Source of the DNA: Mytilus edulis
Lineage: Eukaryota
DNA: 64,000 nucleotides
Direction of reading: 5' to 3'
NCBI RefSeq assembly: GCF_963676685.1
Contig: NC_092345.1
Coordinates: 107,570,001 to 107,634,000, forward strand
Shown: positions 10,859 through 42,339 of the stretch, piece after piece
How the letters are laid out: each line of letters opens with the position of its first letter
Numbering within the stretch: the first letter of the stretch is position 1
The notes under the pieces: generated by a model
Databases searched by the model: none
Told to the model about the DNA's origin: nothing
Seen by the model: the letters and a program-made list of their open reading frames with translations, nothing else
Made by a program: the position numbers and the translations under genes

Positions 10859-10988
10859 ATGGCAGGTAACTTAGATCCAGACCTGATATATAGTACAACT
10901 GAAGAGAAGACATTCAGTAATCAGGATAAATTACCTCCCTTACCTGTACCAGACCTTAGTCATACATTGGACAGATATTTAGATTCTG
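10859..10988 (+). CDS. CROT: CROT coding exon 1
   Basis: MAGNLDPDLIYSTTEEKTFSNQDKLPPLPVPDLSHTLDRYLDS; AG at 10856-57, GTGAG at 10989. Confidence 0.9.
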
Positions 10989-13900
10989 GTGAGTTATAGC
11001 TACGATTATCTCCCTTACCTGTATTCGACCTTAGTCGTAGACTGGACAGATATTTAGATGCTGGTGAGTTATAGCTAGGATTATCTCCTTTACCTGTACC
11101 AGACCTAAGTCATACATTGGATAGATATTTAGATTCTGGTGAGTTATAGCTAGGATTATCTCCCTTACCTGTACCAGATCTTAGTCATGCACTGGACATA
11201 TATTTAGGTTCTGGTGAGTTATAGCTAGGATTATCTCCCTTACCTGTACCAGATCTTAGTCATGCACTGGACATATATTTAGGTTCTGGTGAGTTATAGC
11301 TAGGATTATCTCCCTTACCTGTACCAGACCTAAGTCATACATTGGATAGATATTTAGATTCTGGTGAGTTATAGCTAGGATTATCTCCCTTACCTGTACC
11401 AGATCTTAGTCATGCACTGGACATATATTTAGATTCTGGTGAGTTATAGCTACGATTACCTCCCTTACCTGTATTAGACCTTAGTCATACACTGGACAGA
11501 TATTTAGATGCTGGTGAGTTATAGCTAGGATTATCTCCCTTACCTGTACCAGATCTTAGTCATACACTGGATATATAGATATTTAGATTTTGGTGAGTTA
11601 AAGCTAAGTTTATCTCCCTTACCTGTACCAGTTCTTAGGCATACACTGGTTAGATATTTAGATGCTGGGTAATTAGCTAAGATTATCTCCCTTAGATTCT
11701 GGCGACTTAGTAATTAGGTTTCCCCATCATATATTTGACAGTCATAATATAGTTGTTATCCTGATCGGACGTCCCCATTTGATGAGGGGCCTAAAAGATA
11801 ACCATTGACTCAAGCCTAAGATTGTGATATTATAGTTACTGTTATATGGAAAGATGTAACAATAAGATTTAAAATGCTTTGACTGCAACTTCTGCAAGAC
11901 TAATATATAGAGATTAATACATGGCCTTTTCCATATCAGCCTGGGTATCATCCTGAGACCCCATATCAGCCCGAGACGGAGTCGAGGTGCTGATATGGGT
12001 CTCAGGATGATACCCAGGCTGATATGGAAAAGGCCATGTATTAATCGCTTTATCATATACTTCCGACAATAGTTTTATGTAAGGCAAATAAACTAATGCA
12101 ATAACTAAAACAGTCAAACATTTTATAAAGAAAATTAAAATTATGAATCAAATATACTATAGTTGTCCAACAACAGCATTATACTCCTTATATATTTATG
12201 GTAACATTTCCTATAGAGGCATTTTGAAACATTGAAAATTTGGAAGAGTTTTGCGATCATTACTACTCCATGTTTGTTGTACTATAAAATGATTCATAAT
12301 TGTCAATGGCATTTGTTAGCAAGTATTAAACTATCCCCACAAAAGTTCCCGTAAATTTTGACGTCGTCATAAAAAAACATCTGACGTCACAATGGAAAAG
12401 TAAACAACCGATACCGGAAACATTGGAAGTAACTTGCACGAGAGGCACTGATATGGGTTTTTTGCACGAGAGGCACTTGATATGGGTTATCAGCCCGGGT
12501 GGGAAGATATGGCTTGTGCACTTCCGCCCATTACGCATATGCAAAAGCTATCATATTAATGCTAAGTATATGATAAAGATATTTATTATCTGATGGGTTA
12601 TTCCCCCTCCATGTACATATGTGATTTGAGTAGACATTTTTTATCTGATGGGTTATTCCCCCTGCATGTATGTGATTTGAGTAGACATTTTTTATCTGAT
12701 GGGTTATTCCCCCTCCATGTATGTGATTTTAGTAGATATTTATTATCTGATGGGTTATTCCCCCTGCATGTATATGTGATTTGAGTAGTCATTTATTATC
12801 TGATGGGTTATTCCCCCTGCATGATCTGAGTAAACTTACTAGACAGATGTTTTTGTTCTGCTCTTTGGTTGGGTTGTTGCCTCTTTGACACATTCCCCAT
12901 TTACATTCTCTATTTTATTAACATTCTATAATTATACCTGACCCTTGGTGCGTTAATAGCAAATAATTTTCTTTTTCAGTAAAACCCCACGTAACACCAG
13001 AGCAATATAGACAGACAGAATTTATTGTTCAACAGTTTGCATCTGGTGTTGGCAAACAATTGCACAAGGAGCTTTTAGAAAAGGCTAAACACTCTAGAAA
13101 TTGGGTATGTAAAAGGCCTATTATATTAGGATTTACACTTAAACTTTTTGATTTATAACAGTTTATGTAAAATATCAATATTTATTTCATCAGTTTTTGG
13201 ATCTTCCCTGAATTCTTGTCCTGAGTTTTAAAATTACATTCATCATGTACAATTTATAAAAACTGTCTTATTGTAACTGATGTTAAGAGAAGGTAAATTT
13301 GGACCAGGCCTATAAGAAGATGTGACATAATTGCCAATGAGACATTATCCTTGTTCATTTTGTATCACCTATTATCGAAATAATACCCATTAATTATTTG
13401 TTTTTTTCCTCCCCACCCATATTTTGTTCTTTGCCTTACTACAGCTTTATTTTACTGCTTGGGCATGACAAGACTCTATAGTAAGAAATATCTGTAAAGA
13501 ACTTCATCATCAATACTAAGGTTACTTAATTATTAACTTTATTGTTTTATGGACGAATTGGATATAAATGGCTGATTATTTAATTCTTCAGTTGGAAAGT
13601 TGGTGGGATTCAGCTGCTTACTTAGAGGGTCGATACCCAGTGGCACCTCATGTTAACTTTGGTGGACCTGGACCATATATTCACCATGTCTACCCACCAA
13701 AGGCAGGCACACAAATTCACAGAGCTGGCATGATTTTGCATTCATCACTAAAATTCTGGCAGTTGGTTAGACAGTATGTTAATTTCACAATTATAAAAGA
13801 ATTAACCTTTTAATACTGAAATCTTGTAAAATGAATATAAAAAACAACATGCAAGCATAAGTATGTAACATGATTTAAGAAACAGATCTTAATCGATAAT

Positions 13901-25900: not shown

Positions 25901-28654
25901 TAGTTTTGAAAATATTTTTTTCCAGGAACAGACAAAATATAATTTATATCTGAAAGCATCAAATAAACATAACAGATTGATGAGTGAAGCACAGGAAGTC
26001 AAAGGTAAGATTTACTTTATAGGTGCTAGATTTATTATCAAATTTTTAAAATCATGGAAATTAACTACTGTAAGATATCTTCATTAAAGATTTTGATTGT
26101 TGATATGCATGGCAAACATGTTCATCCGGCAACGTCTTTGCAAGCCAAGGATGACAATCCAGTCCCCACCTCTCCACCCTTGATGATATAATAGAGAATT
26201 TAGGATATACATGGTAAGGGTTTTATGGATTACAGTTGTAACTGGCTGTGTCCTATCATAAAGCACCTTTGAGAAGATAACTTGTAAATGTAAAAACGTA
26301 AATAAACAAGTTCCATGTGCTGATTGTGCAACAAATCTTAATGACAAATTTTAAAGGTCTTAATCAATCTTATAGTAAGTGTACTGTAATGCCAGTTTTA
26401 CATGAGTGCTGGATGTAGTTTATGCCTTTACTTAATTTTTTGTTCTTGAACAGAATGCTGACCCAAATCTTGGAATGTCAACATACATTTTGAGTCCTGC
26501 TTTAGGAAATTTGTGAACACTATATAGACACAATTGTTTTTACACCTCCACACTGAAGAGATTTCAAGTGCTGCCATTTGTGAAGAATTGTGTAGTCAAC
26601 ATGGGAGTGACTTATGTCTGCCTTTAGAAGGCTCAGCATTGTAATAAAAAAATGTTGGCCTAATCAGCCAAGGGTGGAGAGGAGGGGACAGGATCGTAAT
26701 CCTTGCCTATCCAAGATGATCAGGCACATCAGGAAATTCTTAACGAATTTCAAAAATGACATTTAAATCCTGGAATGTATTGTTTGTATTTTTTGTTTGA
26801 TTATGATTTAAGGATTTACATATTTAGCTCAAATGAAATTAAATCTTGATGTCTTAGTCTATCCTACCTTTTTTATTACATTATGAAAGATAATTACTTA
26901 AAATTTGTTTTCCTCTGATAAATGTCTATCCTAGCCTAGGTGTAATGTATCTAGCTTCTAGATGGTATGTTAAAATTTAATTTTCTGATTTGGTCCATTA
27001 ACGACTTACAATATTATATTAAGAACACCTTGTAAGCATAGTGAAACATTCTGTTCCTACTTTTTCTGTGACAAATATATGTGTAATTTTTAATTTTTTT
27101 TAATTTTAGGTTGTGATCGACATTTACTAGGGCTATACCTGTTAGGAAGAGAACAAGGACTACCTGTTCCACAACTATTTACTGATCCTGCTTTTACTAA
27201 AAGGTATTTTGTAAGACTTCCATCTATATGACTGCATTTACATCTGTTACAGTTAACAGTATGCAAAAAAGGCAGACATTTCAAAGTTCTGTCTGTATTT
27301 GATTTTATACAATGAATGAGACTTCAATAACATCTAAAAAAAAAAAATGCTCTAAACATGCTAAATGTAGATGTAAACCAAGAATATTTTTGGTGTAAAG
27401 AGTATCTAAGTTTTACAAAAAAACAAAACAAAGAGATGTGATCGCAACATTTAAAGTGTACCTAGATTCAGTGGTGGCAGTGGTAACTTTGCCTTGTCTA
27501 CAAGCTTTGTAGGATACACAACAGTTTATGGTGGATTGGTTCTAATGCCTACATCTGTCTGTGTCCTCACTTATTTTTGTTTATTTTCAGTGGTGACAGT
27601 GGTAACTTTGCCTTGTCTACAAGCTTTGTAGGATACACAACAGTTTATGGTGGATTGGTTCTAATGCCTACATCTGTCTGTGTCCTCACTTATTTTTGTT
27701 TATTTTCAGTGGTGGCAGTGGTAACTTTGCCTTGTCTACAAGCTTTGTAGGATACACAACAGTTTATGGTAGAGTGGTTCTAATGCCTACATCTGTCTGT
27801 GTCCTCACTTATTTTTGTTCATTTTCAGTGGTGGGGGTGGTAACTTTACCTTGTCTACAAGTTTTGTAGGATATACAACAGTTTATGGTAAAATGGTTCT
27901 AATGCCTACATCTGTGTGTGTCCTCACTTATTTTATTTATTTTCAGTGGTGGCGGTGGTAACTTTGCCTTGTCTACAAGCTTTGTAGGATATACAACAGT
28001 TTATGGTGGAGTGGCTCCAATGGTGGAAAATGGTTATGGTTGTTTTTATCACATGGAACCCAAACAGTATGTATACATCAAGCTTAAGTGTTAATTCTAA
28101 GGTTATGGAAAGGATTGATATTGGTGGTGAATACCACTATATTATTTCATGGTACTCTGTTAATACTGAGTTTGTGAGTTCAAATCTATTCATGTGGCAG
28201 ATATGCTCAACTCCAATCTTTATTAACCATGATTGTTTGATTTGTTTTCCTGTCGAAGCCTGGAACTGTGGATTCCTCCACCAAAAAAACTTGAACGCCA
28301 CGAAATATCCAATAATGCTAAAAGTGGCTTAACATCAAACAATTAATCTTGTTTACTATATAGCATGTTTAAACTCAACTTCATTATTCCATTCTAGTTC
28401 TACATTTAATTACATATCTGATGATTATTTACAGAATAGCGGCATAAAATCCATCTGATTATATCATAGAAAGCATTCTAATACCAAATGAAATCACATA
28501 TCTGATGATTATTTACAGAATAGCTGCTGTTGTAACAACATGGAGAAGTTGTAAAGAAACAGATTCTGTTGTGTTTATGAATGAAGTTCACCAATGTTTA
28601 ACAGAGATGGGAAACATGATAGAAAAAGGCCAACAAACACATGCTAAATTATAA
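10859..28654 (+). CDS. CROT: Peroxisomal carnitine O-octanoyltransferase, whole spliced gene (15 coding exons, 620 aa)
   Basis: GT-AG exons with consistent phases: 10859-10988, 12980-13104, 13592-13773, 14527-14654, 15002-15207, 15476-15589, 19680-19781, 22901-22984 (or 22790-22873), 23929-24036, 24622-24752, 25260-25383, 25926-26004, 27110-27203, 27947-28066, 28519-28654; total 1863 nt. Motifs: LPPLPVPDL, NWLESWW, KWFDKSL, NCDHTPVDAM, TYETATIRRFYNGRTETMRS, GCDRHLLGL, SGGGGNFALSTS, C-terminal AKL. Confidence 0.93.
10930..11705 (+). repeat. 75-bp tandem repeat of the CROT exon-1 3' end plus donor site (~10 units)
   Basis: Donor GT recurs at 10989, 11064, 11139, 11214, 11289, 11364, 11439, 11514, 11593 and 11669. 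Confidence 0.92.
11912..12578. mobile_element. Non-autonomous element with 135-bp terminal hairpin and asymmetric inverted repeat
   Basis: Near-perfect hairpin 11912-12046; CTTTATCATATACTT (12048-62) is mirrored by AAGTATATGATAAAG (12564-78). Confidence 0.65.
12580..12825. repeat. ~51-bp minisatellite (~5 units)
   Basis: TTATCTGATGGGTTATTCCCCCTGCATGTATGTGATTTGAGTAGACAT repeated. Confidence 0.85.
12980..13104 (+). CDS. CROT: CROT coding exon 2
   Basis: (V)KPHVTPEQYRQTEFIVQQFASGVGKQLHKELLEKAKHSRNW; ttttcAG acceptor, GTATGT donor. Confidence 0.9.
13592..13773 (+). CDS. CROT: CROT coding exon 3
   Basis: LESWWDSAAYLEGRYPVAPHVNFGGPG..., within ORF 13568-13813. Confidence 0.9.
14135..14490. repeat. 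Degenerate ~55-bp minisatellite upstream of CROT exon 4
   Basis: Recurrent GAGTCAGGTGCTAGTGGTTGATGTA..TTCTGTATT. Confidence 0.7.
14527..14654 (+). CDS. CROT: CROT coding exon 4
   Basis: EKLRIDKDSKGNKMCMNQFLRAYSTCRIPGVHVDHLSFNFKT. Confidence 0.9.
15002..15207 (+). CDS. CROT: CROT coding exon 5
   Basis: SQGDTPRHAVLMYKERIFTF...GVGALTALERTPWAE, then GTAAGG. Confidence 0.9.
15476..15589 (+). CDS. CROT: CROT coding exon 6
   Basis: MRSRLMALHPENFHYLKTIETAICVVTLDDANPTSEVE, then GTAAGT. Confidence 0.88.
15677..18629. mobile_element. Non-autonomous DNA transposon with CAC..GTG termini, ~235-bp TIRs and 5-bp TSD (Transib/RAGL-like signature)
   Basis: ATATT|CACTGGTATTAAAGAGATAAT... and ...ATTATCTCTTTAATACCAGTG|ATATT; long near-perfect TIRs. 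Confidence 0.8.
16226..16570 (+). pseudogene. Non-LTR retrotransposon (LINE) reverse-transcriptase fragment
   Basis: ACFIDFRKAFDTINR...(frameshift near 16330)...GVKQGCILSPTLFSLYINDL...LLYADDLVLI. Confidence 0.88.
19680..19781 (+). CDS. CROT: CROT coding exon 7
   Basis: LFQKSLGGTPIDKWFDKSLNLIFFENGTAGSNCD, then GTAAGT. Confidence 0.9.
19790..20330. repeat. Low-complexity short-period repeat (GTATCCTACAT/GTATCCA..) starting just after the CROT exon-7 donor
   Basis: Many GTATCC/ACATGTAT units; these generate the spurious ORFs at 19731-20400. Confidence 0.85.
21021..22259. mobile_element. Non-autonomous DNA transposon with 14-bp TIRs
   Basis: CAGGGCCGTAACTA ... TAGTTACGGCCCTG, flanked by AATAT on both sides. 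Confidence 0.78.
22270..22693. mobile_element. Long-hairpin non-autonomous element (same architecture as 11912-12578)
   Basis: Hairpin AATATGATATTTATC..ACAGTTAAATTTT / AAAATTTAACTGT..GATAAATATCATATT; TTTCTCTAAT is mirrored by ATTAGAGAAA at the end. Confidence 0.55.
22790..22873 (+). CDS. CROT: CROT alternative catalytic exon 8a (candidate mutually exclusive)
   Basis: 84 nt, phase 0/0, HSPADGMVYIVFKSYVELLVCKTKGHWQ; tatttatAG acceptor and CAG|GTAATT donor. Confidence 0.65.
22901..22984 (+). CDS. CROT: CROT catalytic exon 8b
   Basis: 84 nt, HTPVDAMVLVASTYYNDLFIAKNKGKWQ; closer to the vertebrate CROT HAPFDAM motif; CAG|GTATGG donor. Confidence 0.88.
23345..23903. repeat. ~72-bp minisatellite, 8 units, ending ~25 nt before CROT exon 9
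   Basis: ACCTTCGACAGGCCTGAAACTGATAATTTACATTTTATAACCAGTGAGACTGATTGTTTGGTAGCAATGTTT units. Confidence 0.92.
23929..24036 (+). CDS. CROT: CROT coding exon 9
   Basis: GSTTKRDLQEPIQLIFHVDDVIRDNIIKAKIDHKQV, then GTAAGT. Confidence 0.88.
24452..24637 (+). repeat. 51-bp tandem duplication of the CROT exon-10 acceptor
   Basis: ttttAG|TCAGACA copies with AG ending at 24485, 24536 and 24587, before the true AG at 24621. Confidence 0.88.
24622..24752 (+). CDS. CROT: CROT coding exon 10
   Basis: SDNLQCNAKFYTKYGKTYLRRNKLHPDTHVQLALQYAYYKLHK. Confidence 0.9.
24688..25140 (+). repeat. ~79-bp tandem duplication of the CROT exon-10 3' end plus donor
   Basis: CACAAAAA|GTAAGT recurs at 24753, 24827, 24906, 24985 and 25058; the last copy has lost its GT. 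Confidence 0.9.
25260..25383 (+). CDS. CROT: CROT coding exon 11
   Basis: PGPTYETATIRRFYNGRTETMRSCTTEALEWSKSM. Confidence 0.92.
25926..26004 (+). CDS. CROT: CROT coding exon 12
   Basis: EQTKYNLYLKASNKHNRLMSEAQEVK(G). Confidence 0.87.
27110..27203 (+). CDS. CROT: CROT coding exon 13
   Basis: CDRHLLGLYLLGREQGLPVPQLFTDPAFTK. Confidence 0.9.
27465..28010 (+). repeat. 119-bp tandem duplication of the CROT exon-14 acceptor plus first ~65 nt of exon
   Basis: ttcAG|TGGTG..GGTAACTTT copies with AG ending at 27471, 27590, 27709 and 27828, before the true AG at 27946. Confidence 0.92.
27947..28066 (+). CDS. CROT: CROT coding exon 14
   Basis: GGGGNFALSTSFVGYTTVYGGVAPMVENGYGCFYHMEPK. Confidence 0.9.
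28519..28654 (+). CDS. CROT: CROT final coding exon with PTS1
   Basis: IAAVVTTWRSCKETDSVVFMNEVHQCLTEMGNMIEKGQQTHAKL-stop. Confidence 0.88.
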
Positions 28655-31084: not shown

Positions 31085-32170
31085 TTTTTGTCGAGCCTGC
31101 AACTTTTGTTGCAGAAAGCTCGACATAGGGATAGTGATCCGGCGGCGGCGGTGTTAGCTCACTTCTTAAAAGCTTTAAATTTCAGAAGGTGGAAGACCTG
31201 GATGCTTCATACTTTGTATATAGATGCTTCATGTTACGAAGTTTCCGTCAGTCACATTTCCAATGTCCTTGACCTCATTTTCATGGTTCAGTGACCACTT
31301 GAAAAAAAAGTTTAAATTTTTTGTAATGTTGAATTCTCTCTTATTATAAGTAATAGGATAACTATATTTGGTATGTGCGTACCTTGCAAGGTCCTCATGT
31401 CTGTCAGACAGTTTTCACTTGACCTCGACCTCATTTCATGGATCAGTGATCAAGGTTAAGTTTTAGTGGTCAAGTCCATATCTCAGATACTATAAGCAAT
31501 AGGGCTAGTATATTCGGTGTATGGAAGGACTGTGAGGTGTACATGTCCAACTGGCAGGTGTCATCTGACCTTGACCTCATTTTCATGGTTCAGTGGTTAT
31601 AGTTAAATTTTTGTGTTTTGGTCTGTTTTTCTCATACTATATGCAATAGGTCTACTATATTTGTTGTATGGAATGATGGTAAGGTGTACATGTCTAGCGG
31701 GCAGATGTCATGTGACCTTGACTTCATTTTCATGGTTCAGTGGTCAAAGTTAAGTTTTTGAGTTTTGGTCTTTTTATCTAATACTGTATGCCATAGGTCA
31801 ACTATATTTGGTGTATGGAAATATTTTATGATCTTTGTCAGTCTCGCAGGTTTTATTTGACCGTGACCTCATTTTCACGGTTCATTGCACAGTGTTAAGT
31901 TTTTGTGTTTTGGTCTATTTTTCTTAAACTATAAGTAATGGGTCAACTATATATGTTGTATAGAAGCATTGTTAGCTGTACATGTCTGCCTGGCATGGTT
32001 CATCTGACCTTGACCTCATTTTCAAGGTTCATTGGTCTTTGTTTAAGTATCTTGGTTAATGTTAAGTTTATGTGACAGTTGTAATAAAACTAAGCTTTAT
32101 ACTTGGGACTATCAACATAATATCAATGATTAGTATAGAAGGCGAGACATTTCAGCGTGTGCACTCTTGT
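31085..32170 (+). mobile_element. HINE-like element carrying internal tandem repeats
   Basis: TTTTTGTCGAGCCTGCAAC..GCAGAAAGCTCGACA hairpin start, (GGC)n, repeated TGACCTTGACCTCATTTTCATGGTTCAGTG blocks, CTCTTGTT end. A related start is present near 60855. Confidence 0.6.
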
Positions 32171-32647
32171 TCTATCTATCAATCAATGGGGATCTCGGTC
32201 CTTGACACATTTCTGTCACAATTTTCTCAACAACTACCAAACAATTTGACACATTTTCTATTTAACTCCTTCTGTGTTTTTCTTTCTATTTCTTAAATAC
32301 TGATATCTTTATAATATGAACCAAGATATGGTTAACCACTTTTATAATCCTGGTACCTTTGATAACTATTTACACCACTGGGTCGATGCCATTGCTGGTG
32401 GACGTTTCGTCCCCAAGGGTATCACCATCCCAGTAGTCAACACTTCGGTGTTGACATGAATATCATTAATGTGGTCATTTTATACAAACTTCCTGTTTAC
32501 AAAACTTTGAGTTTTTTAAAAAACTAAGGATTTTCTTATACCAGGCATAGATTACCTTAGCCGTATTTGGCACAACTTTTTGGAATTTTGGATCCTAATT
32601 GCTCTTCAACATTTAACTTGTTTGGCTTAATTAATATTTTGATATGA

Positions 32648-32691
32648 GCTTCACTGATGAGTCTTATGTAGACGAAACGCGCGTCTGGCGT
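32648..32691 (+). ncRNA. Type I hammerhead ribozyme (first of 11 copies), predicted cleavage after 32685
   Basis: Core CUGAUGA and GAAA; stem II GUCU/AGAC; minimal stem III with palindromic ACGCGCGU; GUC triplet; stem I GCUUCA/UGGCGU. Confidence 0.9.
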
Positions 32692-33085
32692 AATAAATTA
32701 TAATCCTGGTACCTTTGATAACTATTTACACCACTGGGTTGATGCCACTGCTGGTGGACGTTTCGTCCCCGAGGGTATCACCAGCCCAGTAGTCAACACT
32801 TCGGTGTTGACATGAATATCATTAATGTTGTCATTTTATACAAACTTCCTGTTTACAAAACTTTGAGTTTTTTTAAAAACTAAGGATTTTCTTATACCAG
32901 GCATAGATTACCTTAGCCGTATTTGGCACAACTTTTTGGAATTTTGGATCCTAATTGCTCTTCAACATTTTACTTGTTTGGCTTAATTGATATTTTGATA
33001 TGAGCTTCACTGATGAGTCTTATGTAGACGAAACGCGCGTCTGGCGTAATAAATTATAATCCTGGTACCTTTGATAACTATTTAC

Positions 33086-33149
33086 ACCACTGGGTCGATG
33101 CCACTGCTGGTGGACGTTTCGTCCCCGAGGGTATCACCAGCCCAGTAGT
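33086..33149 (-). ncRNA. Degenerate hammerhead-like motif on the antisense strand of each retrozyme unit (third unit shown)
   Basis: Reverse complement: ACUACUGGG CUGGUGA UACCCUCGGGGAC GAAA CGUCCACCAGCAGUGGCAUCGA CCCAGUGGU. Confidence 0.5.
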
Positions 33150-36100
33150 CAACACTTCGGTGTTGACATGAATATCATTAATGTGGTCATTTTATACAAA
33201 CTTCCTGTTTACAAAACTTTGAGTTTTTTTAAAAACTAAGGATTTTCTTATACCAGGCATAGATTACCTTAGCCGTATTTGGCACAACTTTTTGGAATTT
33301 TGGATCCTAATTGCTCTTCAACATTTTACTTGTTTGGCTTAATTGATATTTTGATATGAGCTTCACTGATGAGTCTTATGTAGACGAAACGCGCGTCTGG
33401 CGTAATAAATTATAATCCTGGTATCTTTGATAACTATTTACACCACTGGGTCGATGCCACTGCTGGTGGACGTTTCGTCCCCGAGGGTGTCACCAGCCCA
33501 GTAGTCAACACTTCGGTGTTGACATGAATATCATTAATGTGGTCATTTTATACAAACTTCCTGTTTACAAAACTTTGAGTTTTTTTAAAAACTAAGGATT
33601 TTCTTATACCAGGCATAGATTACCTTACCCGTATTTGGCACAACTTTTTGGAATTTTGGATCCTAATTGCTTTTCAACATTTTACTTGTTTGGCTTAATT
33701 AATATTTTGATATGAGCTTCACTGATGAGTCTTATGTAGACGAAACGCGCGTCTGGCGTAATAAATTATAATCCTGGTATCTTTGATAACTATTTACACC
33801 ACTGGGTCGATGCCACTGCTGGTGGACGTTTCGTCCCCGAGGGTATCACCAGCCCAGTAGTCAACACTTCGGTGTTGACATGAATATCATTAATGTTGTC
33901 ATTTTATACAAACTTCCTGTTTACAAAACTTTGAGTTTTTTTAAAAACTAAGGATTTTCTTATACCAGGCATAGATTACCTTAGCCGTATTTGGCACAAC
34001 TTTTTGGAATTTTGGATCCTAATTGCTCTTCAACATTTTACTTGTTTGGCTTAATTGATATTTTGATATGAGCTTCACTGATGAGTCTTATGTAGACGAA
34101 ACGCGCGTCTGGCGTAATAAATTATAATCCTGGTACCTTTGATAACTATTTACACCACTGGGTCGATGCCACTGCTGGTGGACGTTTCGTCCCCGAGGGT
34201 ATCACCAGCCCAGTAGTCAACACTTCGGTGTTGACATGAATATCATTAATGTGGTCATTTTATACAAACTTCCTGTTTACAAAACTTTGAGTTTTTTTAA
34301 AAACTAAGGATTTTCTTATACCAGGCATAGATTACCTTAGCCGTATTTGGCACAACTTTTTGGAATTTTGGATCCTAATTGCTCTTCAACATTTTACTTG
34401 TTTGGCTTAATTGATATTTTGATATGAGCTTCACTGATGAGTCTTATGTAGACGAAACGCGCGTCTGGCGTAATAAATTATAATCCTGGTATCTTTGATA
34501 ACTATTTACACCACTGGGTCGATGCCACTGCTGGTGGACGTTTCGTCCCCGAGGGTGTCACCAGCCCAGTAGTCAACACTTCGGTGTTGACATGAATATC
34601 ATTAATGTGGTCATTTTATACAAACTTCCTGTTTACAAAACTTTGAGTTTTTTTAAAAACTAAGGATTTTCTTATACCAGGCATAGATTACCTTACCCGT
34701 ATTTGGCACAACTTTTTGGAATTTTGGATCCTAATTGCTTTTCAACATTTTACTTGTTTGGCTTAATTAATATTTTGATATGAGCTTCACTGATGAGTCT
34801 TATGTAGACGAAACGCGCGTCTGGCGTAATAAATTATAATCCTGGTATCTTTGATAACTATTTACACCACTGGGTCGATGCCACTGCTGGTGGACGTTTC
34901 GTCCCCGAGGGTATCACCAGCCCAGTAGTCAACACTTCGGTGTTGACATGAATATCATTAATGTGGTCATTTTATACAAACTTCCTGTTTACAAAACTTT
35001 GAGTTTTTTTAAAAACTAAGGATTTTCTTATACCAGGCATAGATTACCTTAGCCGTATTTGGCACAACTTTTTGGAATTTTGGATCCTAATTGCTATTCA
35101 ACATTTTACTTGTTTGGCTTAATTGATATTTTGATATGAGCTTCACTGATGAGTCTTATGTAGACGAAACGCGCGTCTGGCGTAATAAATTATAATCCTG
35201 GTATCTTTGATAACTATTTACACCACTGGGTCGATGCCACTGCTGGTGGACGTTTCGTCCCCGAGGGTATCACCAGCCCAGTAGTCAACACTTCGGTGTT
35301 GACATGAATATCATTAATGTGGTCATTTTATACAAACATCCTGTTTACAAAACTTTGAGTTTTTTGAAAAACTAAGGATTTTCTTATACCAGGCATAGAT
35401 TACCTTAGCCGTATTTGGCACAACTTTTTGGAATTTTGGATCCTAATTGCTTTTCAACATTTTACTTGTTTGGCTTAATTAATATTTTGATATGAGCTTC
35501 ACTGATGAGTCTTATGTAGACGAAACGCGCGTCTGGCGTAATAAATTATAATCCTGGTACCTTTGATAACTATTTACACCACTGGGTCGATGCCACTGCT
35601 GGTGGACGTTTCGTCCCCGAGGGTATCACCATCCCAGTAGTCAACACTTCGGTGTTGACATGAATATCATTAATGTGGTCATTTTATACAAACTTCCTGT
35701 TTACAAAACTTTTGAGTTTTTTTAAAAACTAAGGATTTTCTTATACCAGGCATAGATTACCTTACCCGTATTTGGCACAACTTTTTGGAATTTTGGATCC
35801 TAATTGCTCTTCAACATTTTACTTGTTTGGCTTAATTGATATTTTGATATGAGCTTCACTGATGAGTCTTATGTAGACGAAACGCGCGTCTGGCGTAATA
35901 AATTATAATCCTGGTACCTTTGATAACTATTTACACCACTGGGTCGATGCCACTGCTGGTGGACGTTTCGTCCCCGAGGGTATCACCAGCCCAGTAGTCA
36001 ACACTTCGGTGTTGACATGAATATCATTAATGTGGTCATTTTATACAAACTTCCTGTTTACAAATCTTTGAGTTTTTTGAAAAACTAAGGATTTTCTTAT

Positions 36101-37159
36101 ACCAGGCATAGATTACCTTAGCCGTATTTTGCACAACTTTTTGGAATTTTGGATCCTAATTGCTCTTCAACATTTTACTTGTTTGGCTTAATTAATATTT
36201 TGATATGAGCGTCACTGATGAGTCTTATGTAGACGAAACGCGCGTCTGGTGTAATAAATTTTAATCCTGGTACCTTTGATAACTAATTTGACCTAATTTC
36301 TTGTCATGGTCAGGATTCACTGAAAAGATTAACGTTACCCTAATTTTCACTGTCATGTTCAGGAATAAAGGCAACAGTAATACACCGCTTTTCAAAAGTA
36401 AAAAATCGATGATGAGAATTCAAAATAAACCGAGGGAAACACATCATCTATATGAGGAAAACAACGAAACAACAGAAACACTGAAGTGCAAGAAATAATC
36501 AAACGACAATGTAACAAACACAGAAGCGAACTATAAGATAGCATCTGCCATTTTCCTGACTTTTAAGAAAAGTGGTGGGTTAAACATGGTTTTATGGCTA
36601 GCCAGACCTCGTGCTTTTATGGCAATGTTAAATATAACAAGAGCCATCTTTCTCTGAAAAGATTAACCTTGACCTCATTTTCCCTGTCATGGTGAGGATA
36701 CATCTTTCCCTGAGAAGATTTATGTTGACCTAACGATCACTGTCATGGTCAGAATATTTCTCTCCAGCAAAGATTTACCTTGACCTCATTTTCACTGTCA
36801 TGGTCAGGATATTTCTTTCCTGAAAAGATTTACCTTGACATCACATGCACAATGGCAGTAAATAATGACAAAATGTAATATTAAATTTCGGGATAGTGGT
36901 AAGTTTTTAAGACTCTTGGATTCTGGTTGCCTCTCAGAATTATATATTATAGGTTGAAAATGTTTTGTGTAGGTATGTAAATTCTGAACATATATATGAA
37001 CATGTCTACCTGACAGGTTTATTTTGTCTTTGAGATATCATTTCCCTGTACATATAGATATAAGAAGATGAGGTATGAGTGCCAATGTCTCCATCCACGT
37101 CACAAGTTATAAAAGTAAACTAGTATAGGTCAAAGTGCATGCATTCTACATCCATTCAT

Positions 37160-37678: not shown

Positions 37679-37722
37679 GCGCCAGACGTGCGTTTCGTCT
37701 ACAAAAGACTCATCAGTGACGC
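37679..37722 (-). ncRNA. Solo type I hammerhead ribozyme in a retrozyme fragment (~37660-37780)
   Basis: Reverse complement: GCGUCA CUGAUGA GUCUUUUGUAGAC GAAA CGCAC GUC UGGCGC; 6-bp stem I. Confidence 0.85.
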
Positions 37723-39008
37723 GCGAATTAAAAATTGTTAAAAAGGCCAAATAAAGTATGAAGTTGAAGAGCATTGAGGATGACAAGATGTTCATCAAAT
37801 AGTTTTCATATGATTATAGAAACACCAGTATACTATTTTTGTCATTATTTCCATAATAAACAAAATTATCACTACAATATGCGATTGAATTCCACCAGCT
37901 GCTGCTTTAATCATTCGCTAAACGTTATTGCCATGTGACGTAGTCCGAATGGCATTTACATATACTGATTAAGTCAACTGTTTAGCATTGAATGCATAGT
38001 CTTTCTTTGTCACTTGTAATGTTTGTTGATGAGCCATATCTAATTCTAAGAACCACTGATATCCACACATATAGCATTAAAGTTATCTCCGAACAATCTT
38101 GGGGATCGGATACGCATCTAAGACTTAAATGGTAATTTCATTTAGTTTCCGACAATCAATACATAGCCGTCATGATGATTCTTTTTTAAAGCAATGGGAG
38201 CAGACCATGGACCAGATGATTTTTCAATGATCTTCTATGATATTTCTTTGTTAAAATTTCCATTTCATTTTTCAAATTTGCCTCTTTAACAAAGGTATTC
38301 TTCTCGTGTGTTGCGTCATGTAATTTTATAGAATGTATCCCTAACATTGTTTTCCCAGTTTTTCAATTAGGATTTACAGATACCTCTTAGAATAGCATTA
38401 ACATCTTTCAGAATTGATTGATTTCTTAACGTTTTTATGCCCCACCTACGATAGTAGAGGGGCATTATGTTTTTTGGTCTGTGGGTCCGTTCGTTTGTTC
38501 GTCCTTCCGTCCGTCCGTGTGTCCCGCTTGAGGTTAAAGTTTTTGGTCAAGGTAGTTTTTGATGAAGTTGAAGTCCAATCAACTTGAAACTTAGAACACA
38601 TGTTCCCTATGAAATGCCAAATTCTATTTTTGACTTTTTTCATGGTCCACTAAACATAGAAATGGATAGCGCGAGTTTCAGGTTAAAGGTTTTTGATGAA
38701 GTTGAAGTCTAATCAACTTGTAACTTAGTACACATGTTCTCTATGTTATGATCTCTATAATATAAATGCCAAATTAGATTTTTGACCCCAATTTCACGGT
38801 CCGCTCGTTCGTTCGTCCTTCCGTTCGTTATTCCGTCCGTCCGTCTGTCTGTCCCGCTTCAGGTTAAAGTTTTTTGTCAAGGTAATTTTTGATGAAGTTG
38901 CAGTCCAATCAACTTGAAACATAATATTTGGCTATACTTTTTGGAACTTTTAAATTATAGTTCTTCATCTTTTATATAAGCTTGGGATTTTACATATTTT
39001 GGCCACGA

Positions 39009-39049
39009 GCATCACTGAAGAGACATGTATTGTCGAAATGCGCATCTGG
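39009..39049 (+). ncRNA. Hammerhead ribozyme, family 2, 3' arm of stem I truncated
   Basis: GCAUCA CUGAAGA GACAUGUAUUGUC GAAA UGCGC AUC UGG. Confidence 0.75.
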
Positions 39050-39172: not shown

Positions 39173-39216
39173 GCATCACTGAAGAGACATGTATTGTCGA
39201 AATGCGCATCTGGTGC
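39173..39216 (+). ncRNA. Type I hammerhead ribozyme, family 2, complete; predicted cleavage after 39210
   Basis: GCAUCA CUGAAGA GACA-UGUAU-UGUC GAAA UGCGC AUC UGGUGC; palindromic AUGCGCAU stem III. Confidence 0.87.
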
Positions 39217-40717
39217 AGAAAAATTGGTACCGTTAATGTTATTAATACACATGTTCCCTATGATATGAATTTTTTAATTTAAATGCCAAATTATATTTTT
39301 GGCCAAATTTCACGGTCCACTGAACATAGAAAATTATGGTGCCAGTTGGGCATCCGTGTACTTTGGACACATTTTTGTTCAGTTAATAATTTCTTTCCAT
39401 TAATAAACGTATTGTCCATATATATATATAATTTATAAGCCATCTAATCAAGAAAATTATATAAAATATCTTATAAACGATATAAGACATCTTATAAATT
39501 AGATTTCATATAGGATATCTAATAACGTTTATGCGGTATCTTATTGTTAGAGTAAAAAACAAAACGACTTGCCATATCCCCATTGTCCCACTGGCATTCA
39601 AACCACACTTCCTTATGTCTATATACTAGTAGTTCATAAAGTATTCAGGGCGATCTCAGTGTCCCCTTGCTCAAAGAAATTATATAGTATGCCAGCTGAC
39701 AAGGTATTCAGGAAAATCCACCACATTGTTAGGGGACAATTAGGTACTGATTAAGGAGATGTGGTATAATTGATAATGAAACAACTATCCACCAGAGTCT
39801 TAATGACAAAGATTTAAGAAGCTATAAGTAAATGTACACCCTTCAACAAAATAGCAAACACCATACCATCTAGTCGGCTATAACAGATATAGCAAGTAAG
39901 ACAAGAAAAAAACCAACAAAGGTCAAGATTAATTAATGACCAAAAAAATATATACCTTGGATTCATGACTATTCGGTTGGATAACAATTTTCGTGTCCTT
40001 ATTTAACAGATGAACCATGCAAGGAATAAAAATGTTACCGAAGTACAAAATATCTATTGGCGTATACGAAAACTTTATTAAAAATTACAAAATCTAACAT
40101 CCACGATTTTACATTTGTTCCGTAATCCACGAACCTTGTAATCTACGATAGTAATGATTAAACCAATTGTTAATTCAAAAATCATAACGTGCATTTATTA
40201 TTGGTTTTTTTTTAGAATGGAGAAAACATGCGAGGTCAGTTTTCGCTATTTCGGAAAAAGCTGCATACAGATGTATCTATCATAAATGAGAATGCAAATC
40301 CTTATTATTGCGAAACTCAACCTGTCGCATAATTCGTTTTAATAAAAACATCTATAATAATTGCAGGCTTCACGATCTAACGGAAAATATTGCACTACAA
40401 TAAAAATAGATAAAAAAAAAAAAGATGTATGAAAATTTCAATAATGCGATACAATGAAAAATAATAAAAGGTGATGTGTGTCATACATCAATGAGGCACC
40501 ACAATGGAAATAATAAGATGTGTGAGTCAGTGCCTCATAAAAAGCAAAACAATGAACATACAAAAGGAGATGCAATGTATAAATCCGTAAGGCAACACAT
40601 CAGTTGAAAATAAAAGAGGAGATGTGGGTTTACATCCATCATGTCCATAAGGCAGAATAACTATTTAAATATCACTCTATTAAACCCTCCTTCACTTTTG
40701 CTCTAACTGTTGCAGTT

Positions 40718-41297
40718 TTCCATTTCTAAGTAGCAACATTCCAGCAGCACCTGCATACGGTGTATATATCTCCCAATTGATACGATATTCCCGTGCTTGC
40801 ATTTCCTATCATGATTTTCTTGATAGAGGGTTGTTGCTCACAAGGAAGCTATTCAGTAAATCAAGAGTTCCAAATGGTGAAGTTGAAATCATCTCTTCGT
40901 AAATTTTACGAACGCCAACACGAGTTGGTTGACCGTTATGTAATAACCGTTTTACAAATGATATCGGATATGTTCCTTACGTCGTAACTACAATCCCCTT
41001 CCCTTTCATGAATGTGACCTACAGAATAACAATTAGACTATTTACCGGATTTGTAATCATATAAGCAACACGACGGGTGCCACATGTGGAGCAGGATCTG
41101 CTTACCCTTCCGGAGCACCTGAGATCACCCCTAGTTTTTGGTGGGGTTCTTGTTGTTTATTCTTTAGTTTTCTATGTTGTGTCGACGGTGTATACTATTG
41201 TTTGTCTGTTTTTCATTTTCATTTTTAGCCATGGCGTTGTCAGTTTATTTTCGATTTATGAGTTTGACTGTCCCTCTGGTATCTTTCGTCCGTCTTT
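40718..41297 (+). mobile_element. Penelope-like element fragment (RT C-terminal region plus downstream non-coding end)
   Basis: Translates FPFLSSNIPAAPAYGVYISQLIRYSRACISYHDFLDRGLLLTRKL, then frameshifts to NQEFQMVKLKSSLRKFY; the family assignment is from recall of this motif. Confidence 0.7.
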
Positions 41298-42339
41298 TGA
41301 GAAATAAGCCAAAAACTGTTTGTCCCTGTGTTCTATTTAGCCATATATATAGCGGTCATGTTTGTTGGTGGTTAAAACCTTCGGATATAAACAAACTAGA
41401 CTATCTTATAAGAAAAAGTCAGTTAATAAAGTCACGGTTTGGAAGTATTTGGTCAAGTAGTTTAATTCAGAGATTGTGAAGATTTTTGACAAAGTAATCA
41501 TAGACATGCACAAAAAAATGTAAGAAATAAACGTTTCAAGGACAACAGCTCCTTAAGTAGCCAATTAACTATTTGATCATTTGACTTATTTGTAGATCCT
41601 ATACATATATATATAGGTGAACATGAAGACTTCTTGTTTTTTTAAGTTTTCAAGTGAAAGAATGTTACTATCATTTTGAGTTTTCTTTCTTGTTGCTTGC
41701 TTTTTTTTTTTCTCAAGAAAAGCCCTTTAATTGTGCAGTTCACTATAATGTGAATATAAGAAATGTATGAATAACAAATCGACAGACAAAGTATATAAAC
41801 AAATCAATCTTTAGATTTGTTTATTTTCCCATGTGAATAAATTCCCGGATTTTAAACAACCGTCATTGGCTTAATATTTAGTAATTATTATAAGAAAGAC
41901 AACGTTTGGTTGGTCAATAATCTTTGGTTGTATACTTTTGATAAATTACACCTTACAATTCTCATTTAGCATGTTTAGTATAAAAAACATATTTTTGATG
42001 AATTATTTTGCATTATAATAAAATATTGCAATGAATACTCTAATTAGCAATCAACGTAAGTGAAAAATGCGATTAAATTATGTAGCTAAATTTAGTATCC
42101 AATGAAATCAACCCTTTCATCTTGCACAGATACACCTTGTAATTAATTCAGAAAAATGAAAACGAACAATGTGGAAAACAGGTAAATTTAAATGTTTTCA
42201 TTTTTAAAAGGTAATCACATATTTAATGCTGAAAAGATGATAACTATTCGTATTTTGTGACTACATTTACGATGTAACCATCTATTTTTCAGTCTTTTTA
42301 AAAACCTTAAGTGGCTTTACCTGCTTGAAACAGAAACTG

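Follow-up and report, generated by a model that had tools for sequence, protein, structure and literature searches.

A hammerhead retrozyme array in Mytilus edulis, likely a non-autonomous parasite of Naiad retrotransposons

The array and its ribozymes

We analysed a window of 64,000 nt from Mytilus edulis (contig NC_092345.1), in which a tandem array of 356-bp units lies on the forward strand (Table 1). A carnitine acyltransferase gene ends at ~28651, 3.7 kb upstream of the array, and an intronic location was therefore rejected. TRF delimits the array with a period of 356, 11.1 copies and 98% matches, in line with the original prediction of near-identical head-to-tail units, each with a complete hammerhead core (intact and of type I in 11/11) and an 8-bp UUCG hairpin. 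The unit is non-coding, as that prediction also held, with a longest stop-free frame of 53 aa, a longest Met-started frame of 24 aa and a GC content of 0.37-0.38. The array had further been said to start and end shortly after cleavage-site equivalents, giving a short terminal redundancy; the ends stand (start at ~+13, finish at +39 to +42), but the redundancy is incidental, a product of the random 5′ truncation point, the 3′ end alone being fixed.

Table 1 Features in window coordinates; signed positions count from the predicted cut site
Feature	Coordinates	Strand	Details
Retrozyme (family A) tandem array	32342..36285	+	11.1 x 356 bp; 5′-truncated at ~+13; 3′ end is the family's fixed end
Naiad-type 5′ leader, first of 11	32377..32434	+	Two stacked stems and a GGAC/GUCC hairpin
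8-bp UUCG hairpin, then ATG	32436..32458	+	Exact in 11/11; three pairs with two-sided changes
First of 11 type I hammerheads	32648..32691	+	Recurs every 356 bp, up to 36209-36252; cut of this first copy predicted after 32685
Hammerhead stems			I, 6 bp; II, 4 bp; III, 2 bp with palindromic tetraloop; compensatory changes between families in I-III
Private G-to-T breaking the fourth pair of stem I	32650	+	Units 1-10 (32650+356n, 35855)
Exact three-unit duplication	32741..34964	+	32741-33896 identical to 33809-34964
Unit stretch +22 to +131	33063..33172	+	Aligns with the 3′-end/5′-leader junction of Naiad-2
3′ tail past the last cut site	36247..36285	+	Putative first-copied cDNA, ending at the inferred start of reverse transcription
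Possible TTT target duplication	36287..36289	+	3 bp; left copy within 32340-32343; chance level by itself
5′-truncated Naiad-2 copy	40714..41298	+	RT C-terminus and 3′ UTR; 4.4 kb downstream of the array

The 11 CUGAUGA...GAAA cores lie on the forward strand at 32654+356n, the last two shifted by +1 owing to an insertion in unit 10. Cleavage is thus predicted after 32685, 33041 and so on to 35533, 35890 and 36246, so that the formula first proposed, 32685 + 356n, holds for nine sites and is off by one at the last two. In the Infernal check that had been suggested, each of three copies scanned matched Rfam Hammerhead_1 with 30.3 bits and an E value of 3.8e-5, below the gathering score of 34, and a scan of the whole window at the gathering score returned no match.

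Stem III, correctly described as 2 bp and self-complementary, carries a GCGC tetraloop within a palindromic 8-mer, and the palindrome is preserved through compensatory changes. Its assignment to the minimal type had to be dropped: the second pair of helix III is C-G or U-A in 25/25 aligned copies, unlike in the minimal PLE type, and 2 bp with a tetraloop is the canonical invertebrate form. Nor is the proposed dimer dependence established, because a monomeric mussel-family construct cleaves at ~0.1/min (PMC7229834). The fourth pair of stem I, G-C in the family, has become a U.C mismatch in the first ten units, with G.U in the last; among 25 aligned copies, 15 have G-C here and 6 have A-U, and the position carries G in 2073/2149 RNA reads. 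With a computed active-fold penalty of 11.0 kcal/mol for the array's variant, compared to 5.5, the mismatch likely weakens cleavage in units 1-10. Two further ribozyme candidates were rejected: an antisense anti-hammerhead in the GGAC/GUCC hairpin, which has a pairing probability of 0.0 in three folded circles and whose word is absent from families B and C, and a relic hammerhead on the minus strand, which lacks CUGANGA and is unconserved.

Insertion signature of the retrozyme family

By description and unit length, the array is a member of the non-LTR retrozyme family published for Mytilus. We counted 11,714 exact hammerhead cores genome-wide (0 for the control), and the family's arrays are dispersed over many chromosomes. 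In RNA, 5693 of 8.7 million records are family reads, with a ~2-6-fold strand bias to the ribozyme sense; these figures come from the raw-read run X24, runs X1, X2 and X4 being presumed RNA. The commonest unit length in the reads is 353 nt (375 reads), and 55/5693 are at least 99% like this locus, the array's private letters being rare in reads that come from another sample. Such reads do not discriminate circles from tandem read-through, and the lack of a read-end pile-up at the cut site is uninformative as the library was fragmented. Circular RNAs have been shown for the mussel family, and they predominate over its other RNA in northerns (PMC7229834). What is already known is thus the repeat family and its circRNAs, and what is new is the link to Naiad and the fixed 3′ end.

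In 36/40 arrays, the best-scoring 40 of 4335 candidates, the 3′ end falls between +39 and +50 past the cut site, and by eye it is likewise fixed in 19/25 distinct loci drawn from the first 30 unselected cores; loose ends lie at +41/+43 in 4/4 public runs. The 5′ ends of 37 independent loci range from 13 to 354 and are indistinguishable from uniform (p 0.15). Target duplications average 3.8 bp, compared to 2.99 ± 0.16 over 301 permutations (maximum 3.42), and 13/36 reach at least 5 bp against 3.6 expected. Fixed 3′ ends, scattered 5′ ends and short target duplications form a pattern as in target-primed reverse transcription, and we found no published account of this combination for the family. 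Together, the fixed 3′ phase and the target duplications bear out the claim that a plain satellite label would be wrong, a satellite spreading at the DNA level only and ending in any phase. Cut linear monomers were rejected as templates because 5′ ends show no excess at the cut site (41, compared to 47 at the one control offset).

At this locus itself, the possible target duplication is only 3 bp and at chance level. By eye, the flanks of most retrozymes are AT-rich rather than (TA)n, the target that Naiads reputedly favour; the rows for Mytilus Naiads in the published table state no target preference.

A Naiad-type leader in the unit

The family's 3′ ends lie 4-6 nt upstream of a Naiad-type leader, a Naiad-derived part that the earlier reading of the array, right in seeing a retrozyme, had overlooked. 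Unit positions +22 to +115 align with the Naiad-2 junction at 79% identity over 96 nt (E 1e-16, with shuffled scores as the reference; nhmmer E 2e-19), and the unit also matches Naiad-1 leaders (E 4e-6), whereas none of six hammerhead-type Penelope families matched it (best E 0.31); the search scored 150 of the 858 GIY-YIG candidates and took in six families other than Naiads. The MFE fold is identical for Naiad-2 and retrozyme leaders, and the position of the UUCG hairpin is, in the alignment, that of the hairpin preceding the first ATG of the Naiad-2 ORF. Ends fall 4-6 nt before the leader stem in 39/54, 9/14 and 14/25 copies of retrozyme families A, B and C, and in 20/27 of Naiad-2 and 25/50 of Naiad-1, the latter with a second mode at -2 (20/50). 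In the Naiad supplement of PMC8557442, an 11-mer from the leader core has 11 occurrences, all of them in 5′ leaders. Within the retrozymes, neither of the two long leader stems has a pair changed on both sides; where pairs did change on both sides, this mostly traces to one split of families A and B from C, and the count of covarying pairs is no better than in shuffles (103/500).

Naiad-2 is a young, hammerhead-free Naiad retrotransposon with a 1000-aa frame in a 3370-bp unit. Its junction occurs 70 times exactly in the genome, a tandem pair of copies shows 2 differences in 3370 nt, and it forms head-to-tail trimers. [quoted passage not shown] Few reads cross the Naiad-2 junction (depth ~29). 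A further locus, L146, matches the N-terminus of the published Naiad_Mgal by eye.

CUGANGA is absent from both strands of the 3370-bp Naiad-2 unit, so that it contains no permuted hammerhead, and an Rfam search of it at E 1 gave no match. A permuted type-SGC hammerhead in the partner was rejected on this ground, the motif being absent from the sense strand of Naiad-1 as well; a hammerhead-bearing PLE with the retrozyme's ribozyme was also sought, and found at 0 of 50 GIY-YIG loci.

Naiad is the likely partner given the similarity at the junction, the same fold and end position, and the lack of a match among the six hammerhead-type families. The homology to Naiad in itself speaks for shared descent rather than for current use of a Naiad enzyme. 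The retrozyme shares its terminal sequence with an autonomous Naiad and, as a family, combines the same 3′ end with random 5′ truncation and a short duplication, as a non-autonomous Naiad should. We found no published account of a Naiad junction inside a mussel retrozyme unit.

It is quite probable, in our view, that the array is one insertion of the non-LTR retrozyme already known from mussels and that this retrozyme, as each unit combines a type I hammerhead with a Naiad end-and-leader junction, is a non-autonomous parasite of Naiad, whose enzyme is predicted to copy its circRNA. Transcription would be mainly in the ribozyme sense, as known at the family level; hammerheads would cut multimers into ~353-nt monomers, to be ligated into circles, as published for the family (with RtcB ligation in vitro). 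A Naiad RT-endonuclease may then bind the leader, which lies immediately 3′ of the start site, and nick T-rich DNA; priming is predicted 41 nt past the cut site and ~6 nt short of the leader stem. Since a linear monomer, once cut, would let reverse transcription proceed for only 41 nt before running off, full units require a circle or an uncut multimer; the enzyme could circle its template up to ~10-12 times and drop off at random, and the variant pattern shows later reshuffling of the array by DNA recombination. By analogy, this geometry matches the internal initiation and ATT nicking of Anolis Poseidon (PMC11167929). We lean slightly towards a wider reading, in which the Naiad 5′ leader would be an ancient RNA origin of reverse transcription, with priming 6 nt upstream, from bivalves to hemichordates. 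Mussel retrozymes would then be viroid-like satellite RNAs that captured this origin, with a hammerhead from elsewhere serving solely for circularization, and would be rolling-circle copied by the enzyme of a ribozyme-less element.

It is highly improbable that the repeat derives from the pseudo-LTR of a canonical hammerhead-bearing PLE (Penelope/Poseidon or Neptune), as in the Xenopus proposal, and is mobilised by that element. Such an origin is favoured by PMC7229834 and bioRxiv 2026.07.22.740005, the genome has several such families with open ORFs, minimal hammerheads and similar AT-rich terminal motifs, and two of them end, by eye, in TAT(T) ~55-60 nt past their own hammerheads; yet none of the six families compared matches the unit, the hammerhead sequences differ, and Naiad matches exactly at the junction. 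It is rather doubtful, too, that the leader acts as a DNA promoter of the repeat and not as a signal in the RNA to which the reverse transcriptase responds. The leader contains what we take to be a B-box-like word, and the family is strongly expressed. It also sits at the Naiad 5′ start, where PMC8557442 places internal promoters of PLEs. However, the 3′ ends keep a fixed distance from the leader stem, the stem arms vary among published Naiads with complementarity retained (by eye), and seven runs of at least 4 T per unit speak against Pol III; the two roles are in any case compatible.

The template might be an uncut linear multimer from a genomic array, with the hammerhead and circles as by-products, which we judge unlikely. 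Naiad-2 makes its trimers with no CUGANGA in the unit, mutation of the Poseidon hammerhead leaves insertion in vitro normal (PMC11167929), and the variants of one array (L054) follow a roughly period-2 pattern. Against this, circles prevail in mussel northerns of the family (PMC7229834), compensatory changes maintain the hammerhead stems across families, and arrays of 8-11 units have at most 7 fixed consensus differences and no shared variants (L034), which points to repeated copying of one monomer. The rolling-circle origin first proposed fits this family pattern, three arrays of 8-11 units (L034, L028 and L023) having 0 variants shared among subsets of units. It does not extend to all 11 units here as the product of one reverse-transcription pass, given the exact three-unit duplication (1156 bp at a lag of 1068, compared to at most 247 bp at other lags) and the 7 variants common to non-adjacent units: the array was remodelled afterwards as DNA, by recombination. 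These same observations, along with a last unit that is the most divergent and retains ancestral letters and one insertion site of which the genome has three copies, with 2.14, 2.14 and 4.14 units (L037, L045 and L049), lend tentative weight to a short insertion of 1-3 units that grew to 11 solely by unequal crossing-over, as a satellite would. We find this somewhat unlikely, as the array would still have ~8 units without the duplication, a size seen in other arrays with star-like variation, 11 consensus differences are fixed in all 10 full units, and the duplication may be an assembly artefact. The stem I defect and the reshuffling make the array probably a poor source of circles.

Comparison with known systems

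The enzyme that copies animal retrozymes and its start on the circle have been open questions since 2020, hammerhead-bearing PLEs being favoured, and a review finds no partner-indicating motif in the repeats (PMC7761336). The partner named here from sequence belongs to a hammerhead-less clade, which agrees with the suggestion in PMC8557442 that hammerheads live off PLEs as parasites and do not serve them. For Naiads, a very abundant clade, this gives a ~60-nt candidate for a cis signal and a prediction of the nucleotide where copying starts, and a minimal system for circRNA-to-genome insertion could serve as a tool.

The non-LTR retrozyme of M. galloprovincialis (Cervera & de la Pena 2020, PMC7229834) likewise consists of 350-390-bp units in tandem that carry a type I hammerhead, is poor in GC and exists in thousands of copies, and its Mg353 construct, at 353 nt, equals the commonest unit length in the reads analysed here; the main text gives no partner, fixed end or insertion signature. 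The hammerheads of minimal PLEs/Terminons and the dimer-dependent ones of axolotl and newt resemble those of the array in their palindromic helix III, which makes pairing between copies possible, whereas helix III here is of the canonical invertebrate form and the mussel monomer cleaves. Vertebrate retrozymes (Li, Clavereau, Pollet, bioRxiv 10.64898/2026.07.22.740005) are also non-autonomous and share terminal sequence with PLEs, but their homology is to Xenopus PLE pLTRs; the main text of that study reports Naiad only in coral and deals neither with molluscs nor with end mapping or a cis signal.

Naiad PLEs (Craig et al. 2021, PMC8557442), Naiad_Mgal among them, are like the retrozyme in their 3′-end/leader junction, end position, 5′ truncation and tandem copies. 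They differ in encoding GIY-YIG and RT and having no canonical hammerhead, whereas the retrozyme has a hammerhead and no ORF. The sections consulted of that paper describe neither a non-autonomous Naiad nor a leader structure, and the family listed for the species is other than Naiad-2. Anolis Poseidon (Frangieh et al. 2024, PMC11167929) is autonomous, with a C-terminal endonuclease and its own hammerhead, and what was seen there in vitro is inferred for the retrozyme; in both, the start is internal and downstream of the hammerhead, RNA 3′ of the start is needed and the nick is at ATT.

The array and its retrozyme families

The array is a plus-strand tandem repeat with a period of 356 bp (Tandem Repeats Finder, 11.1 copies, 98% matches) and 11 hammerhead cores, as originally predicted, and the UUCG hairpin expected in each unit is exact in 11 of 11. 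No reading frame exceeds 53 codons, consistent with the claimed lack of an ORF, and a carnitine acyltransferase gene on the same strand ends at its stop codon about 3.7 kb upstream. Predicted cut sites follow the proposed series, after 32685 and every 356 nt, as far as 35533, but the last two fall at 35890 and 36246. The suggested comparison with Rfam Hammerhead_1 gives 30.3 bits (E 3.8e-5) at each of the three copies scanned, under the gathering score of 34. The right flank opens with sequence resembling the 55-bp unit of a neighbouring repeat.

Across the 1.37-Gb genome (14 large contigs), we counted 11,714 copies of the exact 32-nt core; a related core occurs 5,395 times. Extracted monomers of families A (354-359 nt, including the array), B (365-368 nt) and C (about 350 nt) are homologous along the whole unit, and those of family D (549-568 nt) have only the ribozyme in common with them. 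A profile of the Naiad-type leader that every unit of the array carries, two stacked stems with a GGAC/GUCC hairpin, found no match in family D. One D copy terminates in (TA)n, roughly 250 nt beyond the cut site, and this family may be mobilised by another partner. Separately, a tandem repeat of about 440 bp (L084 99/541, L090 97/537, L088, L102, L103) contains a hammerhead-like CUGACGA...GAAA adjoining what we take to be a tRNA-like promoter word.

Expression is observed at the family level. In a stranded run (X24) from another sample, in which circles and tandem read-through look alike, 5,693 reads of 8.7 million records map to one unit (32520-32875), with a roughly 2-6-fold bias toward the orientation that ribozyme-sense RNA gives in standard stranded libraries and no dip in depth at the cut site. 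The commonest unit length is 353 (375 reads); shorter variants also occur, one group at 318-319 nt (193 reads) and another at 347-352 nt.

Coordinates of the array and associated features (window positions unless a contig is named)
Feature	Location	Strand	Description
Retrozyme array	32342-36285	+	family A
Flanking repeats	31420-32037, 36647-36843		tandem, 147-bp and 55-bp units
Exon-derived repeat	10930-11694		75 bp x 10.2; presumably carnitine acyltransferase coding-exon pieces, splice donor included (by eye)
Exon-derived repeat	27467-28022		119 bp x 4.7; carnitine acyltransferase coding-exon pieces
Hammerhead fragment	37679-37722	-	family B type; helix III loop non-palindromic
Decayed stretch	~38090-38220	-	presumably LTR-retrotransposon RT (by eye)
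Hammerhead	39009-39046	+	family C
Hammerhead	39173-39243	+	family C; keeps the family's fixed 3' end
Naiad-2 fragment	40714-41298		
Naiad-2, L219	G000:C1:407300-416500		1000-aa frame
Naiad-2, L220			1000-aa frame
Family D, L165-L168	G000:C1:4528063-4637144		tandem; hammerhead homologous to other families; palindromic CCGG or CTAG loop
Family D, L088, L093, L095			as above
L054 array	G000:C3:79756146-79760105		six units

A junction homologous to Naiad elements

The retrozyme leader recurs in two families of Naiads, a type of Penelope-like element (PLE), in the same genome. Naiad-2 forms head-to-tail tandems of a 3,370-bp unit, with an N-terminal GIY-YIG and CxC and DKA motifs in its long frame, and its junctions run from the 3' end through the leader to the first ATG of that frame. 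Counted from the ribozyme cut site, positions +22 to +115 of the retrozyme unit match this junction at 79% identity (E 1e-16), and the alignment extends across the hairpin up to an ATG at +131. Searching with a retrozyme-only profile retrieved Naiad-2 (E 2e-19) and three Naiad-1 leaders (E 4e-6), with no match in six other PLE families, and the predicted folds of the Naiad-2 and retrozyme leaders are identical. Copy ends fall 4-6 nt short of the first leader stem in 39/54 cases for A, 9/14 for B, 14/25 for C (7 of the 11 non-conforming ends are probably an artefact of a deletion in the reference used), 20/27 for Naiad-2 and 25/50 for Naiad-1, which has 20 more at -2. Seven metagenome matches to the leader comprise three Naiad-type junctions and four retrozymes, and all 11 occurrences of the leader-core 11-mer in the supplementary data of Craig et al. 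2021 lie in Naiad 5' leaders (CGi, Sglo, Tgra, Pmar, Mcor, Mgal, Bpla, Skow, two Pfla and Cmel), whose stem arms are, by eye, divergent yet complementary (PMC8557442). Homology of the two junctions is shown at the sequence level.

Naiad-2 is a very young family, with 70 exact junction occurrences and two tandem copies differing at 2 of 3,370 nt, and is distinct from the published Naiad_Mgal, which a Naiad protein in this genome matches by eye (PMC8557442). Seven RNA fragments stop within its leader after about 31 nt, a distance equal to the PLE tail. A permuted hammerhead, described for Naiads (PMC10085705), was considered in the partner and rejected for these two families; CUGANGA is absent from both strands of the Naiad-2 unit and from the sense strand of Naiad-1. 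Around GIY-YIG hits (50 loci; 150 of 858 candidates scored), several PLE families carry minimal hammerheads of their own and none a retrozyme-like one. At least five such families are canonical (L060, L065, L070, L086, L092-L094, L098, L107), two with open frames of 755-799 aa.

Insertion, template and array history

We mapped ends in the best 40 of 4,335 candidates (the window array and 39 fetched), a choice that biases the set to young, long copies. The 3' end is fixed, lying 39-50 nt past the cut site in 36 of 40; of the others, one extends beyond the sequence retrieved, a second carries an internal deletion but keeps the end motif, and two have tails to about +57 and +63. Among unselected cores (first 30 of contig 1, 25 distinct loci, by eye), 19 end at this site, 4 continue and 2 stop early, and loose ends occur at +41/+43 in four public runs. 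After three duplicated sites were dropped, 37 5' ends range from 13 to 354 (uniformity not rejected, p 0.15), so the short terminal redundancy pointed out in the original prediction is incidental. Longest flank matches at 36 loci average 3.8 bp against 2.99 ± 0.16 in 301 permutations, with 13 loci at 5 bp or more (3.6 expected); the window array has TTT only, and a 26-bp tail fragment inside a Naiad 3' UTR has a TT duplication. Fixed 3' ends, scattered 5' ends and flank duplications are the signature of target-primed reverse transcription that begins internally. From the shared junction, we infer that a Naiad primes on retrozyme RNA.

Reverse transcription started at +41 would reach the end of a cleaved linear monomer within 41 nt. 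Such a template is rejected, as genomic 5' ends show no excess at the cut site (41 versus 47 two bases inside), implying a ligated or uncut template, which we infer to be circular. Repeated copying of one monomer predicts no variants shared by subsets of units, as found in L034, whose 10 units have 7 fixed differences and 1 singleton, and in the 11-unit L028 and 8-unit L023, so that the proposed rolling-circle origin fits the family. The window array itself departs from it: seven variants are common to non-adjacent units, 32741-33896 is exactly repeated at 33809-34964, and the last unit retains ancestral letters, which points to shaping by DNA recombination, or, for the exact duplication, to an assembly error. 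Elsewhere in the family, a single insertion site is present with 2.14, 2.14 and 4.14 units. L054 and L057 are mosaic as well; L054, with no singletons and a variant pattern of roughly period 2, was possibly copied from a dimeric template.

The ribozyme and known systems

In 25 aligned A, B and C copies, 96.5% of 897 alignment cells are paired; the eight covarying pairs do not beat shuffles (103 of 500), pair changes being mostly one family split. The hammerhead is not the minimal PLE type originally proposed, because helix III is 2 bp with a tetraloop, the typical invertebrate form (PMC7229834). Its 8-mer palindrome is kept in family C and most D copies, so dimer cleavage may still be possible. 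The fourth stem I pair is G-C in A/B, A-U in C and U.C in array units 1-10, a change that one fetched core outside the window also shows, whereas the commonest intact form is present in 144; RNA reads have G in 2,073/2,149. By nearest-neighbour prediction only, this change raises the active-fold cost from 5.5 to 11.0 kcal/mol, the whole-circle active fold costs 9-12 kcal/mol, and the stem II 3' arm pairs across the cut site in two of three whole-circle folds. Cleavage of the window array is probably reduced.

In the openly available literature searched, no paper connects retrozymes with Naiads or reports the leader; a review states that retrozyme repeats show no partner-indicating motif (PMC7761336). 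The value of the array lies in its Naiad-derived junction, which points to the likely mobilising enzyme and start nucleotide. A 2026 preprint tying Xenopus retrozymes to PLEs differs, its main text concerning pseudo-LTRs and no mollusc (10.64898/2026.07.22.740005). Insertion here resembles that of the Anolis Poseidon element, which in vitro starts internally, nicks at ATT and requires RNA 3' of the start (PMC11167929). The family itself is already published, and the array, whose anatomy is described here, is a real, aged copy of it: the mussel retrozyme of Cervera and de la Pena 2020 is a repeat of the same type, with units of 350-390 bp, about 5000 hammerheads, monomer cleavage at ~0.1/min, abundant circRNA and in vitro ligation by RtcB (PMC7229834).
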